50,198 nucleotides of DNA. Source: a virus. Lineage: Duplodnaviria; Caudoviricetes. Both the position numbers and the translations under genes were made by a program. Under the pieces are notes generated by a model, which was given only the letters and a program-made list of their open reading frames with translations, did not search any database and was not told the DNA's origin. Shown here in pieces: positions 5,505 through 17,380 of this stretch; position 1 is the stretch's first letter; the number at the start of each line of letters is the position of its first letter. The stretch is taken from positions 1 through 50,198 of IMG/VR virus record IMGVR_UViG_3300027868_000002, one strand, 5' to 3'.

Positions 5505-6752
5505 ATGACCAAGAAGATTAAGCGAGCAAAGAGTAAAAGAGCAATCAATCCGGTAGAAGAGTATAAAAAGACAGTAAGTAAATATCTTGTTCTGAATGAA
5601 AGCCATGATTACATTGATTTTGTCTTTGGTGTGATTTTTGCAAATAGATTGGATGCCAAACCAATATGGGCTTATTTGATTGGGCCAAGTGCGGCGGGGA
5701 AGACTACAGTAATTGACCCAATGAACGGGCATGAAAGTGTTTTGGTAACAGATGATTTAACTCACGCCAGTTTGTTACCTGGCATTAAGGCGGGGAGGCC
5801 AACTGAGAAGACAGCAAAAGCAGCAGTTAAAAATTCATTATTAAGTCGTGCCGATGGAAAGATTCTTATTGTAAAGGATATGTCGCCGTTGCTGACAAAA
5901 CATTATGATGAGTTGAAGTCAATTTTAGGTGTATTGAGGACGGCCTATGATGGCACATATTCCAAGAATTTTGGCAATATAGGTGAAGTTAAGATTAATT
6001 GCAGGTTTGGTTTTATTGCTGCTGTTACTGATGATATTGATAACCATTCTATTATTGATTCGGAATTGGGGCAAAGGTTTATTGGGTACAGGATGCCTTC
6101 TATCAGTTTGAAGGAGGAGAGAGCGATATGTGATGCTGTGAGGGAGAATAAAGAAAGTGTGTTGAATGAGGTGCTGCATGAAGCGGCGTGTAAGGTGTTG
6201 GATAGAGGGCCAAAAGAGCCGAGTATTACGAAAAGGCAAGCTGATACAATTATGTATGCGGCTGAATTAGTTGGTTTGGCGAGAACAGGGATAAGAAGAG
6301 ATAAATACAGACGTGATGCCAGAGTGTCGAGACCGGAAAGAACGGCAAGGCTGTATTCTCAATTGATTAGTTTGGCGAAAGGCGTGGCGATGGCAAGAGG
6401 GCATAAGAGGGTGATGGGGGAGGATGTGGTGTTTGTCAGGCATGTGGCCGCACATACATTGAGCCTTGAGACATTGCGCTTGTTGAACATGTTTATCGAC
6501 TTCGGCGGGCTGACTATTGATAGGCTGCATGATAGATTCGGTTGGCATAAAGATACGTGTTTTGAGAAACTTGACAATCTTAAACAAGTGGGAATATGTG
6601 ATACCGAACCAATTGCCGGTAAAAAGGGGAGGGATGAAACTATGTGGACGTTGAAGAGGCCGGATCAGTGGGAGAAGATGTTGAGGAAATTGGATTATGA
6701 TGTATGTTATCATGGTAGTGCGAGTAAGAGGGGTAAGAGAATTAAATTTTGA
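5505..6752 (+). CDS. MCM-like AAA+ ATPase / putative replicative helicase with C-terminal winged helix
   Basis: Walker A GPSAAGKT; ADGKILIVKD (Walker B region); FIAAVT sensor 1; QRF arginine finger; RLYSQLISLA...V..EDV sensor-2 helix. Confidence 0.75.
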   Translation: MTKKIKRAKSKRAINPVEEYKKTVSKYLVLNESHDYIDFVFGVIFANRLDAKPIWAYLIGPSAAGKTTVIDPMNGHESVLVTDDLTHASLLPGIKAGRPTEKTAKAAVKNSLLSRADGKILIVKDMSPLLTKHYDELKSILGVLRTAYDGTYSKNFGNIGEVKINCRFGFIAAVTDDIDNHSIIDSELGQRFIGYRMPSISLKEERAICDAVRENKESVLNEVLHEAACKVLDRGPKEPSITKRQADTIMYAAELVGLARTGIRRDKYRRDARVSRPERTARLYSQLISLAKGVAMARGHKRVMGEDVVFVRHVAAHTLSLETLRLLNMFIDFGGLTIDRLHDRFGWHKDTCFEKLDNLKQVGICDTEPIAGKKGRDETMWTLKRPDQWEKMLRKLDYDVCYHGSASKRGKRIKF

Positions 6753-7848: not shown

Positions 7849-8733
7849 ATGAAACTAAAAGTACGTTGTTATAAAGATTATTATATAGGCGGTATAGGCG
7901 GTAAAGGCTGGTATTTATGGCATGACGGCACAATTCATAATGTAGCATATGACATAAAGGCAAACAAATTAGATGAGGGATATTGGACTTCTAAGCAAGA
8001 GGCGCAGCAATTCCTCGATGACTGGCTACCCCAAAAAGATTGGATAACGCAGGAACAAGTGAAACAAGCTGCCGAACATTCAGATGAAATGGCTTTAATG
8101 TGTTCGTTAAACCATTGGAAACAAATGTTGTTGGCCGGAAAAGATAAGTATTTTGTTGGTGTTTATGAGGAAAAAGTAAACCATACTCAGGATTATTGTG
8201 CTTTATGTAAACGACATAAATCTGAGAGAAACTGCCCATTAGAAAAGAATTGTGACTCTCATTGTGTACCAGAGTACAGAGATTGGAGCCGCCCAACTTG
8301 GGAAGAAGGGCATATTAGGATGTTGAATAAATTGCAGGAGACTTACAATAAATTATATATTGATGCTAAAGACGTGCCAAATGGAGAAGCACTTTTTTGG
8401 TGTGATTCAGGTGGCGTTTATTGGAATGATAAAAAAGTTGTTAATTTTAAGGGCAAGAAAATGAAAGAAATAGAAATTAAAGGCAAGAAGTTTTCGGAAG
8501 AGACAATAGTTGAGGCGTTGAAAGCCCATGTTGGATTTGAAGAGACGTATCAGTTTAAGGCTGGGGATGTTTGTATAAACGATTTTGGAGATAAAAGAAT
8601 TATTTGTAAATCAAATTCAGCTTCAGAATTAGTTTCTTTTAATTCAGAAGGAAAAGCACAGAGTGTTGGGCAGAGTGGGTTTGAACTCATGGGCTATGAG
8701 AAAATCGGAGAATTGAAAGATTTCTTGAAATAA
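7849..8733 (+). CDS. Modular hypothetical protein with Cys cluster; possible internal start at 8461
   Basis: AAGGAG RBS; CALC..CPL..C..HC. Confidence 0.75.
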   Translation: MKLKVRCYKDYYIGGIGGKGWYLWHDGTIHNVAYDIKANKLDEGYWTSKQEAQQFLDDWLPQKDWITQEQVKQAAEHSDEMALMCSLNHWKQMLLAGKDKYFVGVYEEKVNHTQDYCALCKRHKSERNCPLEKNCDSHCVPEYRDWSRPTWEEGHIRMLNKLQETYNKLYIDAKDVPNGEALFWCDSGGVYWNDKKVVNFKGKKMKEIEIKGKKFSEETIVEALKAHVGFEETYQFKAGDVCINDFGDKRIICKSNSASELVSFNSEGKAQSVGQSGFELMGYEKIGELKDFLK

Positions 8734-9007: not shown

Positions 9008-9655
9008 ATGAGCAAAAGAAGTGACAAATTAGAACATCTAAGTAAATTCTGCAATCTCGAAACGGGTGAACTTGATATGAATGAGTTCGCCGATTTGGAA
9101 TTGCTATACCAGAAAGGCAGACGTTTCCACAAGTTATCACAAAGGATAAGTCGCTGTCATCTATGCGAAAGGATGAATATAGGTAGGGTGACGGAAGCGT
9201 GTTCAGGGTGGGGTAATCTCAATGCTGATGTAATGTTTGTAGGACAGAGTTTGCACGAACCAGGGATGTATTCTCAGATACCGTTTATACTTGGATCAGG
9301 TTTGATGATTGATGCTGCTTTGAGATTAAGTGGAATTGACAGGCATGATTGTTTTTGGACAAATGTTGTATTATGCCATCCTGAGAGGAATAGGGCGAGC
9401 ACGGATGAGGAGAAGGAAAATTGCTGGTCATATCTGGCAGAGGAGATTGACATTGTTCAGCCGCGTGTGGTTGTAGCATTAGGTAGAGATGCCGAACAAG
9501 GTGTTAAGAAATACATGGAAACAAGGGAGTATGGGTTTAAGTATCTAAAGTATCAACATCCGGCAAGTTTGATATATAGCAGCCCTGAAGCGAGGCCGAA
9601 TTGGGTTGTGAAATTGTCACTTGATTTGGATAAAATTTTGGGAGACAAGAAATGA
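9008..9655 (+). CDS. Family 4-like uracil-DNA glycosylase (Fe-S)
   Basis: CHLC, ADVMFVGQS, PF..SG, TNVVLCHP..NR, C..YL..EI..VQP.VVVALG, HPA motifs. Confidence 0.85.
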   Translation: MSKRSDKLEHLSKFCNLETGELDMNEFADLELLYQKGRRFHKLSQRISRCHLCERMNIGRVTEACSGWGNLNADVMFVGQSLHEPGMYSQIPFILGSGLMIDAALRLSGIDRHDCFWTNVVLCHPERNRASTDEEKENCWSYLAEEIDIVQPRVVVALGRDAEQGVKKYMETREYGFKYLKYQHPASLIYSSPEARPNWVVKLSLDLDKILGDKK

Positions 9656-10041
9656 AAAAGAAACTTGGGTTCTGGTACTTTTGTCATCCATACTCAGCCG
9701 AGACCGAAGAAGGTAGGATAGCTAATTACGAATTGTGTTGTAGAAGGTCTGCCAAACTTGTTCTTAAAGGGCATAATATATTCAGCCCGATTGTTCATTC
9801 ACATTCGATTGAAATAGCCAGCCCTGAAATGTTGAAATGGCCGATAGATAAACGATGGCAATTTTGGATGGATATAGACTTTGCTATCCTCGAATATGTC
9901 GGGTTTACAGGAGTGATACTTGGGCCGGAATGGGGCAAGTCAAATGGATGTCAAAGGGAATATGATTGGTTTTTGTCACATGTTAGGCCGGATGGTAAGC
10001 CGTATGATGTTTTGAGATACTATGATTTGATGGGAGATTAA
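9652..10041 (+). CDS. DUF1937 / nucleoside 2-deoxyribosyltransferase-like protein
   Basis: YFCHPYS, FSPIVHSH, W..SNGCQRE. Confidence 0.8.
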   Translation: MKKKLGFWYFCHPYSAETEEGRIANYELCCRRSAKLVLKGHNIFSPIVHSHSIEIASPEMLKWPIDKRWQFWMDIDFAILEYVGFTGVILGPEWGKSNGCQREYDWFLSHVRPDGKPYDVLRYYDLMGD

Positions 10042-10044
10042 AGA

Positions 10045-10386
10045 ATGAAAACATCTGAATTTATATCATTTGTTGTATCATTAGAAAATAATAATCTTGA
10101 TTTATCTGACACCCACACGCTTCATTCTGTTTTGGGCATCGCAGGAGAAGCAGGAGAGATAATAGATTTGGTAAAAAAGTCTGTAGTATATCATCAGACA
10201 CTTGATATAAAAAACCTTAAAGAAGAACTTGGTGATTTGCTGCACTATGTAGCAATGCTGCTAAACGCCCAGAATTGGTCTTTTGAAGAGGTGTTTGAAT
10301 CTAACGCAATAAAACTAAGAAAACGCTATCCAAATGGATTTACTTATGAAGATGCAGTAGCCAGAAAAGACAAACAAGGAGATTAA
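10045..10386 (+). CDS. MazG-like nucleotide pyrophosphohydrolase
   Basis: GIAGEAGEIIDLVKK...EELGDLLHY...N..KL.KRYP. Confidence 0.9.
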   Translation: MKTSEFISFVVSLENNNLDLSDTHTLHSVLGIAGEAGEIIDLVKKSVVYHQTLDIKNLKEELGDLLHYVAMLLNAQNWSFEEVFESNAIKLRKRYPNGFTYEDAVARKDKQGD

Positions 10387-10868: not shown

Positions 10869-12771
10869 TTATCAAGATATATTGCTGCAACATAAACAAG
10901 CCAAACGTATTTGGAAGTACGATAAGCAATCAAGGTTATTGCTGCGAAAAAAGAAAGAGATAGTAGCGGCAGATACAGAAACGACCAGTTTGTTGTTCCA
11001 TACACCGTCTGTCTTACACGATGACAATGATAGAATAGTTGACAATCCATTTCCATTTGGTTTGACGCTTGCCTTTCCTCATCGTGACAGATTGATTTTA
11101 GTGTGGGGTAGATATGGTACAGACTTGTATAAAGCTTGTATGGATGTGTTTGCTTCCGACTGTATGAAGGCGTGGCATAATTCAAAATACGATTTGAGGG
11201 TGTGTAAGACAAATGGAATTGAAGTTAATGGTGTTCAGTTATGTACCTTGACGATGAGTAGGATTTATTGGGATAGACGTAAGAGTCATTCATTGCAGGC
11301 ATTGAGCGAATTTATCTGTCCTGGTATATCAGATTGGGAGGAAGGCTTAAAGAAAGAATTGACCAAATTGAGACGGCAATGGAGTAAGAAGAAAGATGAA
11401 TGGAATCCGGCCTGGACTGGAGACCCGAAGGAATATGTAAATTATAGTTTCCTGCCTGATAGGATGATTGGTGAGTATAGCCAGACTGATGTGTTTGTAG
11501 TGTGGCAGTTGTTTAAGAAATTGTCACCGTATATGTGTGAGGAGTATGCGAGCATATTTGACAGGGAAATGGCTGTCACTCATGTTGTTACTAAGATTGA
11601 AGAAGCTGGAATGGGATTTGATGCCAAACGTGGCAGGGCTGAGTTGAAGAAATTGTTGCCCAAGATTAAACTGAAGAGGAGAATACTTGAGGAATTGTCA
11701 TCACCTGATTTCACACTTGGGCCAAAGAGGATTTTGGAAGCGTTGCGGTTTTTAGGTGTTAAGTCAAAGCAATTAAAAGCGAAAGGCAAAGAGACTACGA
11801 ATGTCGATGTGTTGAATCAAGCTGTTAGAGATGGTGTGCCTAAAAGGGCTGAGAGGTTTATCAAAGTGTTGTTGGACTATAGGGCGTATAATAAGATAGC
11901 CAATACCTATTTGAAACCATTGACCGAACAGGCTGAGAGAACTGGCGGGACTGTATATACTACTATTAATCCCACTGATTCAAGGACAGGGAGGCCAGCC
12001 AGTCGCGATCCAAACCTATTAAATATACCTAATCAGGATGTGAAGCAAAGAGGTAGACAGAATAAAGTAAGAGATTGTTTTGTTCCTCGCAGCAGTAAAA
12101 AATATAAATTTCCTAAAATTATTTTGCCTGTTTATGATGAACTTCAAATCGAATGGAATGGAGCTATATATTACTTCGATGTCAGTCAACAGGAAATGGC
12201 AATGTTTCTAAGCTATGCTGGTGCTGACGATATGTTACGGGCATATTTTGATGGTGCTGACCTTCACCAACACATGGCTGATTTGTTAGGTAGACCGGAG
12301 AAAAGAAAGATTATTAAGAACCAGAACTTTGGCGTGATATACGGATTGGGTATTAGGGCTATGGCCGCTTCACAGAATCTAAGTATTGAACAGGCCAAGA
12401 AGGAGATGAAGATTTACAATGAAGAGTTTCCTTTTATTTATGAATTGCAGGAAAGATTGAAAGATGAATTAGGGTTTTACAAATATGTTCAAGATTATTT
12501 TGGTAAACCATATCATGTTCCATACGGTCAAGCGTATAAGGCAGTTAATGCAATTGTTCAGGGTGGCTGCGCCCAGGCTTTTAAGCAAGGGTTGTTACAG
12601 GTTGATGAATTGTTGGAGAAAAAGAAACGAAAAAGTGAAAAACAGTTTTGCCAAGAGACTATAAGAGCGATGAGTGAAGTTAAGGAATTGATGGGTGTTG
12701 GTTTGAGGTTCAGGGTGGATGTTAAGAAAACGACTACGAATTGGACAGAAAAGAAAAAATTAAAAATTTAG
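10861..12771 (+). CDS. polA: Family A DNA polymerase with 3'-5' exonuclease; motif C relocated upstream of motif A
   Basis: ExoI DTET, ExoII HNSKYD, ExoIII YSQTD; TGR...PNLLNIP; motif A FDVSQQE; motif B KNQNFGVIYG; NAIVQG; motif C-like PVYDELQIE. Confidence 0.92.
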   Translation: MSDYQDILLQHKQAKRIWKYDKQSRLLLRKKKEIVAADTETTSLLFHTPSVLHDDNDRIVDNPFPFGLTLAFPHRDRLILVWGRYGTDLYKACMDVFASDCMKAWHNSKYDLRVCKTNGIEVNGVQLCTLTMSRIYWDRRKSHSLQALSEFICPGISDWEEGLKKELTKLRRQWSKKKDEWNPAWTGDPKEYVNYSFLPDRMIGEYSQTDVFVVWQLFKKLSPYMCEEYASIFDREMAVTHVVTKIEEAGMGFDAKRGRAELKKLLPKIKLKRRILEELSSPDFTLGPKRILEALRFLGVKSKQLKAKGKETTNVDVLNQAVRDGVPKRAERFIKVLLDYRAYNKIANTYLKPLTEQAERTGGTVYTTINPTDSRTGRPASRDPNLLNIPNQDVKQRGRQNKVRDCFVPRSSKKYKFPKIILPVYDELQIEWNGAIYYFDVSQQEMAMFLSYAGADDMLRAYFDGADLHQHMADLLGRPEKRKIIKNQNFGVIYGLGIRAMAASQNLSIEQAKKEMKIYNEEFPFIYELQERLKDELGFYKYVQDYFGKPYHVPYGQAYKAVNAIVQGGCAQAFKQGLLQVDELLEKKKRKSEKQFCQETIRAMSEVKELMGVGLRFRVDVKKTTTNWTEKKKLKI

Positions 12772-12781
12772 GAGATTTCTC

Positions 12782-12809
12782 TTGACATTGGTGAAATATA
12801 TGTTATAAT
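12782..12809 (+). promoter_or_regulatory. Consensus sigma70 promoter
   Basis: TTGACA-16 nt-TATAAT with TGn. Confidence 0.85.
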
Positions 12810-12853
12810 AGTTTACAGAGTGGATGAGTAAGAGAGATTAAAAGGAGCAAATA

Positions 12854-13006
12854 ATGTCAGATAGATGGGGGCCAAGTGAAGATTGTCCGGTATGTAGCCA
12901 ACCACAATCGTATGGTCATTTTGCCAAATGCCCTGTATGTGAGAGAACGATGTGCGATTGGTGTGTTGGACATGAGCATGAATGTGGGAATGAACAGGAG
13001 AAATAA
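12854..13006 (+). CDS. 50-aa zinc-finger protein (not in ORF track)
   Basis: AAGGAG RBS; CPVC..CPVC..CDWC..H.HEC. Confidence 0.75.
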   Translation: MSDRWGPSEDCPVCSQPQSYGHFAKCPVCERTMCDWCVGHEHECGNEQEK

Positions 13007-16108: not shown

Positions 16109-16404
16109 AAAAACCAAATAAAACAAAACTTATCAACTTAAAAACATATAATAAAGAAGATTATGTATTAATTGATAGGACTACAATATTTGGTAATCCA
16201 TATCTGATAGGAAAACATGGCAGCAGAAAAGATGTTATTGCGAGACACAAAAGGTATTTTTATAATAGACTTAAAGACGCGCTGTTTCGAGAAGCTGTAG
16301 AAAGTCTTGCTGGTAAGACATTAGCCTGTTGGTGTACGCCACTGCTTTGTCATGGTGATGTAATTATTGAATATCTGGAGTCATTAGATGAAAAAACCAA
16401 ATAA
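16105..16404 (+). CDS. DUF4326 family protein
   Basis: IDR.T.FGNPY...L.GK.LACWC.P..CHGDV. Confidence 0.88.
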   Translation: MKKPNKTKLINLKTYNKEDYVLIDRTTIFGNPYLIGKHGSRKDVIARHKRYFYNRLKDALFREAVESLAGKTLACWCTPLLCHGDVIIEYLESLDEKTK

Positions 16405-17380
16405 GATAATTCCAAGTACTAAATTAAAAATGGTATCTTGCCATAAAATGTGGGACTTTGCCTGTCCTCGTAGATACTTCTGGCGGCGTGTGATGAATTT
16501 TCAAAGTAAGAACCTAAATATGAACTTTTATTATGGAAGTGTCTTAGGTGCTGGCTTTGAAGCTATCCTATTAGGCAAGAAAAACTGGAAACAATTGATG
16601 CGTAAGGAACATAATCGTCAGATTAAAGGGTATGACATAAGCAAGTTAGTTGATGAACTTGATTTGCAATACCGTCTCATTGAAGTCATATTAGAACAAG
16701 CTAAAGTACAGGCCAAGCAATATGGAATGTCACTCACTAAGTCACAAGTATCTGTCAATACTAAACTTAGGTGTGGTGTCATTTACTGCGGCACTGAAGA
16801 TGGTGAAGGTGTGTATGAAGGAAAGCAAAGTTTGTTTGAGATTAAGACAGCTTCTAAAGTCAATCAAGGATATTTAGACTCATTAAAACTCGACAAACAG
16901 ATTAACGCCTACTGTTGGGCCAATCGAAGTGGTGAGTTATATGATCCTATTAAAAAGAAAACATTGAAAAACAAACACTATAATAAATGTGTGTATTGTA
17001 TTTTTAAGAAACCCCAAAAAAGACTGAAGAAGAACCAAACACCCGATGAGTTTGTCGAAGAGATTGCGCAAGACTGTATTGACAGGCCGGAAATGTATTA
17101 CGAATGGTTGCAGTTGTCACTTGTCAAACCGTTTGTCGATTCGGTTGGCCAAAGTATTGAACGTATGGCTGAGATACTTAAAGATATTTATTGTAGATTA
17201 AGTAAAAAACAATTACTTGATCCTAACTACTGGCCTGAAATGGAATCTAAATGCAGCGACTATTCAGGTTGTGAGTTTCTGCCGTTATGTCTAAAGCCGA
17301 ATGGGTGGCAGATGTATCTTAGATTCTACGAGCAACGTACCATGTTATACGATTTGGAAAAAGAGGAGTTGGAACAATGA
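16388..17380 (+). CDS. PD-(D/E)XK Cas4/RecB-like exonuclease
   Basis: CPRRY, G.ED, EIKT, QINAY, C-terminal C..C..C (Fe-S pattern). Confidence 0.85.
   Translation: MKKPNKIIPSTKLKMVSCHKMWDFACPRRYFWRRVMNFQSKNLNMNFYYGSVLGAGFEAILLGKKNWKQLMRKEHNRQIKGYDISKLVDELDLQYRLIEVILEQAKVQAKQYGMSLTKSQVSVNTKLRCGVIYCGTEDGEGVYEGKQSLFEIKTASKVNQGYLDSLKLDKQINAYCWANRSGELYDPIKKKTLKNKHYNKCVYCIFKKPQKRLKKNQTPDEFVEEIAQDCIDRPEMYYEWLQLSLVKPFVDSVGQSIERMAEILKDIYCRLSKKQLLDPNYWPEMESKCSDYSGCEFLPLCLKPNGWQMYLRFYEQRTMLYDLEKEELEQ

Follow-up and report, generated by a model that had tools for sequence, protein, structure and literature searches.

A phage family A DNA polymerase gene in which the motif C hairpin precedes motif A, and its canonical relatives

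The phage record IMGVR_UViG_3300027868_000002 (IMG/VR; Duplodnaviria, Caudoviricetes) is complete, with a length of 50,198 bp, direct terminal repeats and a CheckV completeness of 100. All of it was analyzed here as one stretch of 50,198 nucleotides, which we call the window, and it carries a gene for a family A DNA polymerase whose palm motifs depart from the family's usual order. The gene can be read from the ATG given in Table 1 or from an alternative in-frame start (TTG 10849), which would give a protein of 640 amino acids; the frame is open throughout these 640 codons, as an earlier note on this DNA, made from the sequence alone, had stated. The protein matches the Pfam profile PF00476 (DNA_pol_A) at E 7.3e-40, with 137.5 bits against a cut-off of 34.3. 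This is the sole PF00476 match in the complete record, and a second polymerase was not found there by matches to PF00136, PF03175 or PF07733. The alignment covers profile positions 28-327 of 381 and ends before motif C. Similarly, phmmer against the PDB recovered Klenow-fragment chains at E 2.7e-27, in alignments that end at query residue 593-594, also before motif C. We attribute the early end of the sequence models (profile position 327 of 381) to the altered motif order in this polymerase. Upstream of the palm, the protein contains DTETT, HNSKYD and YSQTD, which we take to be the Exo I-III motifs of a Pol I-type 3′-5′ exonuclease. The match to PF01612 (DNA_pol_A_exo1) is just over the cut-off (24.0 and 23.6 bits, respectively), and the exonuclease residues D38, E40, D111, Y206 and D210 are invariant in a 25-sequence alignment (A1).

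The altered motif order is visible in the translation of positions 12061-12204, which reads NKVRDCFVPRSSKKYKFPKIILPVYDELQIEWNGAIYYFDVSQQEMAM. Along the chain, the order is RDCFVPR-SSKKYKFP-KIILPVYDELQIEW-NG-AIYYFDVSQQE, followed by motif B and then by NAIVQGGCAQAFKQGLLQVDELLE-KKKRKS-EKQFCQETIRAM (Table 1). Translation thus confirms what the earlier note had proposed, a copy of motif C just before motif A, and places the hairpin two residues ahead of the motif A strand. The 63-nt block that the note had located at 12094-12156 is found at exactly those positions (SKKYKFPKIILPVYDELQIEW), and the RDCF segment that it had started at 12061 begins at 12070 instead. The note's observation that nothing like motif C occupies the usual site also holds, as there is no hDE hairpin after ...LLQVDELLE, which ends at 12618. 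The motif order is therefore C-A-B and not the family-typical linear A-B-C, in which motif C follows the QG..A...K helix. We considered LLQVDE as a substitute motif C and rejected it, because the canonical relatives have LLQVDE plus a hairpin of their own.

Apart from motif C, the protein retains the residues expected of its family. In an alignment of 113 family A proteins (A2), D440 is invariant and Q443 and E445 are nearly invariant, and every listed invariant or near-invariant residue is kept in the window protein except in the Asp and Glu columns of canonical motif C. The window protein has gaps in those two columns (1589 and 1590 of A2), and the relocated block supplies both residues. The polymerase is thus a family A homolog with altered connectivity and not a member with the standard architecture.

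In the PDB alignments over 12115-12195, HMMER placed the relocated hairpin (kiilpvydelqiew) on the motif A of Klenow (ivsady--sqiel), so that the true motif A fell in a stretch of poor alignment; permuted polymerases can be misannotated in this way. We rejected this pairing of KIILPVYDELQIEW with Klenow motif A because AIYYFDVSQQE aligns with the Asp column that is invariant across the 113 sequences.

Table 1. Positions of the polymerase gene and of its motifs in the window.
Feature	Position	Strand	Basis or remark
Family A DNA polymerase gene, including stop codon	10861..12771	+	636 aa from ATG 10861; open reading frame (ORF) list, Pfam
3′-5′ exonuclease domain, limits approximate	10960..11541	+	DTETT, HNSKYD and YSQTD motifs; PF01612 match
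RDCFVPR	12070..12090	+	In canonical relatives runs via [DN]GK straight into the motif A strand; 42-sequence and codon alignments
Linker SSKKYKFP, leading to the first strand of the relocated hairpin	12091..12114	+	Differs in length and sequence between permuted genes
Relocated motif C hairpin KIILPVYDELQIEW	12115..12156	+	[KR]IILPVYDELQIEW in 10/10 permuted sequences
Presumed metal-binding pair Asp426/Glu427, within the relocated hairpin	12136-12141	+	
Two-residue turn NG, from second hairpin strand to motif A strand	12157..12162	+	
Motif A strand AIYYFD, catalytic Asp440 at 12178-12180, then SQQE (Glu445)	12163..12195	+	
Motif B (fingers O-helix) RKIIKNQNFGVIYG	12304..12345	+	R482, K486, N489, Y494 and G495 in near-invariant A2 columns
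Helix NAIVQGGCAQAFKQGLLQVDELLE, preceding motif C in canonical enzymes	12547..12618	+	N563, Q567, G568, A571 and K575 conserved
Vacated motif C site, short Lys-rich loop KKKRKS	12619..12636	+	Replaces ~19 residues of canonical relatives
C-terminal palm: helix EKQFCQETIRAMSEV... and last strand GLRFRVDVKK, ...NW	12637..12768	+	AlphaFold2; matches canonical relative

A search of 5.8 billion proteins returned a compact family of 61 sequences (E <= 2e-101), separated by a gap from ordinary bacterial Pol I at E 1e-19. Seven members of this family are permuted, with a VYDE hairpin before motif A (P0001-P0006 and P0009); 52 are canonical, and the remaining two are fragments that end before the site. 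Metagenome contigs add three more permuted sequences (L013, L025 and L026), while L006 and L032, which repeat P0005 and part of P0004, respectively, were used as sources of DNA and add no distinct sequences. A search for family A homologs in C-A-B order, which the earlier note had named as a check, thus yields ten distinct and diverged permuted sequences, from jgi, ena and lgn sources and from independent metagenome assemblies. The six permuted relatives from the protein search are 81-88% identical to the window protein. Its nearest canonical relatives (P0007/L005, P0010, P0019/L007 and others) have 75-89% protein identity and the same length (634-637 amino acids); their copy of the same block, KIILPVYDELQIE (KIILPVYDExxxE), occupies the ordinary site, and they have nothing before motif A. 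Because canonical relatives of the same length carry the block at the ordinary site only, we conclude that it was moved rather than newly inserted and that its likeness to motif C is not due to chance.

Comparison of the two forms defines both ends of the rearrangement. At the old site, where all ten permuted rows of a 42-sequence alignment have a gap relative to the 32 canonical rows, canonical VDELYERKY-KDAKIILPVYDELQIERKI-KKDEKQFC corresponds to permuted VDELLEKKK-RKSEKQFC. At the new site, canonical CFVPR-DGK-AIYYFD corresponds to permuted CFVPR-xxKxYKxx-KIILPVYDELQIEW-NG-AIYYFD. The moved unit measures about 19 residues (57 nt), is roughly KYKDAKIILPVYDELQIER in canonical relatives, and lies some 155 codons upstream of its former position. 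The earlier note had therefore placed the moved block correctly but made it too long at 63 nt; its vacated site, 12618/12619, is right to within a few codons, although the alignment allows any position as far as 12627/12628. In the 62 sequences that are complete at both sites (52 canonical and 10 permuted), the hairpin occurs exactly once and is never missing or doubled.

Other searches, which were narrow in the case of IMG/VR and of the representative set, returned no further permuted polymerase. With tblastn, cultured phages gave 1,722 records, all of them below 60% identity (the best among the matches listed, 23.8%), and no close cultured relative. The 48-residue junction peptide, a short query, was compared with 1.84 billion representatives, the 50%-identity clusters of which merge permuted and canonical forms, and at E <= 0.001 matched only the canonical P0122 (36.6 bits; best stretch, query residues 35-48). 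A short-protein search with residues 396-460 gave three candidates and two matches, P0122 and P0123, both canonical. A scan of IMG/VR for the pattern YDELQIEW had no matches, although the window's own record may lie outside that scan. Four further IMG/VR scans with a narrow pattern, which looked 25-55 nt upstream of DYSQxE for a generic H-D-E codon string, found 24 stretches (14, 5, 0 and 5), none of which is a permuted polymerase. The family A genes among these 24 (L045, L051, L053, L058 and L060) were rejected as canonical, having a chance HD[DE] string or an out-of-frame match.

To place the relocated hairpin in three dimensions we turn to predicted structures. The AlphaFold2 (AF2) model of the permuted protein, built with the 113-sequence alignment, has a mean predicted local distance difference test (pLDDT) score of 93.6 and a predicted template modeling (pTM) score of 0.90. 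In this model, the consecutive strands 419-424 and 427-432 (the hairpin) and 435-442 (motif A) form a three-strand meander; over 10-residue blocks, the mean pLDDT is ~82 in the linker (residues 411-420), 94 in the hairpin and 96 in the motif A strand. The direct passage from hairpin through turn to motif A that the earlier note had envisaged is thus predicted with high confidence. Further along, helix 558-587 leads through a short loop to helix 593-605, and the last strand is 618-624. The model of canonical P0007, built from the same 113 sequences in a different order (pLDDT 93.0, pTM 0.89), has its motif A strand at 413-420, its hairpin at 572-577/580-586, a helix at 591-603 and a strand at 617-622, with the other elements in the same order as in the permuted model. 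Foldseek matched the permuted model to Klenow (8oo6_A; template modeling (TM) score 0.71, E 8.9e-23), Bst, apicoplast Pol and Pol theta, with 172 PDB chains in all at E <= 0.001. We predict a Pol I-like fold of the exonuclease, thumb, palm and fingers.

The palm of these enzymes is a ferredoxin-like sheet of strand order 4-1-3-2, in which the second motif C strand adjoins the motif A strand and is antiparallel to it. Because of this adjacency, a direct turn from the hairpin into motif A would keep the sheet. We propose that a segment of ~57 nt, encoding the motif C hairpin with its Asp-Glu pair, was taken out from behind the QGG...K helix and placed, in frame, some 155 codons further upstream, where the CFVPR-xGK stretch borders on the motif A strand. 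From the linker, the protein would then pass through the first hairpin strand, the Asp-Glu turn, the second strand and the two-residue turn into the motif A strand, a meander that would re-form the same sheet and set the two carboxylate motifs next to each other, as they are in canonical enzymes. Beyond motif A, it would take the usual route through the fingers (motif B) and return by the Lys-rich loop into the last palm helix and strand. We infer both this sheet order and catalytic activity, and propose that the enzyme acts as a replicative or repair DNA polymerase.

The permuted genes do not group together. On a maximum-likelihood tree built from 42 rows without the block columns, six changes of the trait are required, at least four of which are forced by well-supported branches, and monophyly of the permuted genes on the rest of the gene is rejected both by this tree and by the approximately unbiased (AU) test. 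Such a pattern would be expected if the permutation had arisen several times or were switched by a dedicated mechanism, such as a mobile in-frame cassette. This is the main rival to a single origin, and we regard it as unlikely on the evidence of the two junctions themselves. The insertion point is identical in all ten permuted rows. They also have a common block sequence in which QIE is followed by Trp, in contrast to the Arg or Lys of canonical rows, and this is so whatever block variant the nearest canonical relative has; the permuted P0003 and P0004, for example, group beside canonical P0021, whose block is QIILPVYDECQVER. The informative columns show a reticulate pattern. When 7 near-duplicates and 7 outgroup rows are dropped, leaving 10 permuted and 18 canonical rows, association with the trait is at background over most of the gene (mean r2 ~0.06), peaks only at the two junctions and decays away from both. 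Specifically, column 619 is Leu in 10/10 permuted and 0/18 canonical rows (r2 1.0; Tyr or Ile in the closest canonical relatives); column 650 is Asp in 0/10 permuted and 17/18 canonical rows (r2 0.86); and column 470 is Ile in 10/10 permuted and 6/18 canonical rows. Shared Leu at 619 and the missing Asp at 650 both speak against repeated origin, as does the lack of repeats flanking the sites: only short, chance-level repeats were found at the junctions, in agreement with the earlier note, which had seen no long ones.

The DNA of one permuted gene, L006, displays the mosaic directly. L006 and canonical L007 are 96-100% identical in most 45-nt bins from 10906 to ~12067, and L009 matches L006 equally well up to ~11930. 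After the new site (region ~12157-12340), L006 is instead closest to the permuted L013 (0.96 and 0.87 at 12157-12246); between 12382 and 12606 it is again L007-like (0.87-0.98); and at the old site (region ~12600-12700) it is once more closest to L013 (0.84 at 12640-12684). Judged by its DNA, L006 is a patchwork on a canonical backbone, which is a further point against repeated origin. Our reading is that the permutation arose once, inside a clade of canonical enzymes, and that homologous recombination carried both junctions onto other backgrounds. We place the origin within such a clade because all seven outgroup rows are canonical. Insertion at one site and deletion at the other are always paired in the 62 sequences, which fits selection against genes with zero or two hairpins; we infer that such genes were selected against.

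Some residues at the junctions may record how the move took place. Canonical genes read PR-[DN]G-K-A[IV]YYFD, and permuted L013 reads PR-NG-K-M-YKDM-block-NG-AIYYFD. The two extra residues of the window protein (the NG turn) may therefore be a duplicate of the target-site [DN]G. P0003, P0004 and L013 retain a Lys/Arg-Tyr at the old site and, at the new one, have YK ahead of the block as well. Together with the flanking NG-K and NG of L013, this residue pair would fit a history in which the block was first copied and then deleted from its original place.

Selection on the relocated block is strong. Its 13-residue core, IILPVYDELQIEW, is identical in 10/10 permuted proteins, and across the ten pairs formed by five permuted DNAs the proportion of synonymous differences (pS) in the core is 0.83, with synonymous changes near saturation, against a proportion of nonsynonymous differences (pN) of 0.019, a small value that we read as the product of path averaging between Leu codons. 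The linker adjoining the block has a pN of 0.40 (6 pairs). Over the whole gene, uncorrected and thus rough pN/pS values are 0.12-0.15 among permuted genes and 0.15-0.17 among canonical genes; by this codon comparison, constraint on the permuted genes is not relaxed.

These results bear on the question of whether the protein might be a catalytically dead or repurposed homolog, a DNA-binding or exonuclease-only protein in which the block is kept for some other reason while the host polymerase replicates the phage. Both carboxylates are indeed missing from the canonical site, polymerase activity is a prediction, and several large ORFs of the early region have no family assignment. However, the Asp-Glu pair and both strands of the hairpin are invariant while synonymous sites change freely, the motif A Asp and Glu, the motif B Lys and Tyr and the other conserved columns are kept, constraint equals that on the canonical relatives, and one hairpin is present in every one of the 62 complete sequences. 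We consider a dead or repurposed protein distinctly unlikely. We regard the protein as a genuine, conserved family A DNA polymerase that is very probably active.

The one sequencing run listed for this DNA is a DNA run in the form of Logan contigs, and no RNA run was listed. This second assembly contains one 50,101-nt contig, identical to the window over 11800-12900 at a depth of 20. Because this run probably is the source of the record, the case against an artefact rests chiefly on the diverged copies from other assemblies. Short-read assembly of metagenomes can produce misjoins, and the single run compared was compared as contigs, but with ten diverged copies in the same order from different assemblies and data sources, a second assembly without difference, no repeats or splice-like elements flanking the block, and an open frame that evolves under normal codon constraint as it stands, it is hardly credible that the order is an assembly artefact or that a scrambled gene is rearranged at the DNA or RNA level before use, the two alternatives that the earlier note had named.

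The reading that we hold to be highly probable is a working family A polymerase with a proofreading exonuclease and a non-circularly permuted palm, of single origin and spread by recombination. Its central element, a non-circular permutation that would give a rewired and complete palm, had been suggested in the earlier note and is supported by recurrence, by purifying selection, by the kept family A residues and by the AF2 prediction. Several points weigh against this reading. By the AU test, the permuted genes do not form one clade (delta lnL 215, p 0.000216), and the case for a single origin is built on the junction-linked markers and the mosaic rather than on a tree. With uncorrected pS near saturation, the pN/pS values are rough. 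The block columns are covered in AF2 by only seven near-identical sequences, and the placement of the predicted hairpin comes from the network and not from covariation. Finally, read-level support for the order is weak, consisting of a single run, at the contig level and probably from the source sample.

The polymerase lies among genes for a uracil-DNA glycosylase (UDG) superfamily protein, a deoxyribosyltransferase-like protein, MazG, YopX, an ERCC4-type nuclease, exonucleases, a Sak4-like annealing protein and a DNA methylase. Directly upstream of it, at 9008-10386 of the window, are the UDG-superfamily protein, the nucleoside 2-deoxyribosyltransferase-like protein and the MazG pyrophosphohydrolase, and a UDG domain is fused to some distant PolA matches (P0085, P0106 and P0115). 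A scan of 17 ORFs identified no primase or helicase, and the window ORFs at 5505-6752, 7849-8733 and 16388-17380 (415, 294 and 330 amino acids) had no Pfam or PHROG match at the thresholds used. The ORF at 2671-3687 matches Peptidase_C39_2 (E 2e-07) and, at its C-terminus, the PEP-CTERM motif (E 1.9e-4; 21.8 bits, cut-off 20.7).

Other variation was observed within the polymerase family. The clade has Tyr in place of the usual His before Asp-Glu, and its more distant members (P0045 onward) have VHDE. Canonical L008:1456-3402 and P0044/L036 have an altered first hairpin strand (KIILCPYDEIQIE; PYDEI in P0044). Canonical L002:2989-5739 (also P0024) has a 279-residue intein-like insert between RTGRPA and SRDPNL, upstream of motif A, which starts with Cys, ends with His-Asn and is followed by Ser; P0024 has a precomputed PF14890 match. 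Permuted L006:2001-4013 (P0005) and canonical P0020 are both extended at the C-terminus by a zinc-ribbon-like tail of ~37 residues that contains two CxxC pairs and is absent from the window protein.

The A-B-C order of the palm is treated as universal for template-dependent polymerases (PMC8310298), and this gene departs from it. It is especially valuable in that canonical and permuted forms that are nearly identical exist side by side and recombine. They provide matched natural 'before' and 'after' enzymes, 85-89% identical, that would allow a direct measurement of what an active site gains or loses by rewiring, and they show how a permutation can spread through a recombining virus population. 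The gene is also a warning that profile-based annotation truncates or misaligns permuted polymerase genes, and it suggests a design route to engineered Pol I variants with altered connectivity. A more speculative idea, which we put forward only tentatively, is that C-A-B rewiring may recur as a viable solution for DNA polymerases as it does for RNA-dependent RNA polymerases, and that the permuted and canonical alleles of this phage population may be a long-lived dimorphism with a built-in barrier to recombination and possibly altered enzyme properties. The rearrangement would act as such a barrier in an essential gene because single crossovers between the two sites give zero or two hairpins. 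If so, only double exchanges carrying both junctions would succeed, and the L006 mosaic would be an example. Relocation of the hairpin could also affect fidelity, the coupling of fingers and palm, or how sensitive the polymerase is to a host factor directed against it, and such altered properties would let selection maintain both forms.

Our literature searches found no permuted DNA polymerase: the papers listed for permuted palms all concern RNA-dependent polymerases, and among those listed for PolA in virioplankton no title or abstract opening mentions one. In print, we have found such rewiring only for a few RNA-virus polymerases. Compared with the Klenow, Bst and Taq large fragments (PF00476), the window enzyme is homologous over the exonuclease, thumb, fingers and palm and has all of the motif A, B and C residues; it differs in its C-A-B order, in the turn of two residues that links the hairpin to motif A, and in having no more than a short loop at the canonical site. 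Its nearest canonical phage relatives differ from it in having the block after the QGG...K helix, where it has the block before motif A. The closest parallels in layout are the C-A-B RNA-dependent RNA polymerases (RdRPs) of Birnaviridae, Permutotetraviridae and Grapevine virus Q, in which, according to two papers (PMC8310298, PMC4666646), the motif C hairpin is directly upstream of motif A and the active site is kept. One of these papers names Permutotetraviridae and Birnaviridae as exceptions to the A-to-D order of palm motifs (PMC8310298). The other describes the arrangement in the solved permuted RdRP of Thosea asigna virus, where the beta6-beta7 hairpin bears GDD and beta8 ends in motif A, as compatible in space with a canonical active site (PMC4666646). 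By analogy, the window enzyme probably works, topologically, like these permuted RdRPs. It belongs to a different class of polymerase with no detectable homology to them, and Pfam at E <= 1 gives only DNA_pol_A and DNA_pol_A_exo1; the likeness is an analogy of topology and not a matter of membership. Whereas the RdRP permutations are ancient and define whole virus families, the permuted and canonical forms described here differ by 11-25% in protein and still recombine.

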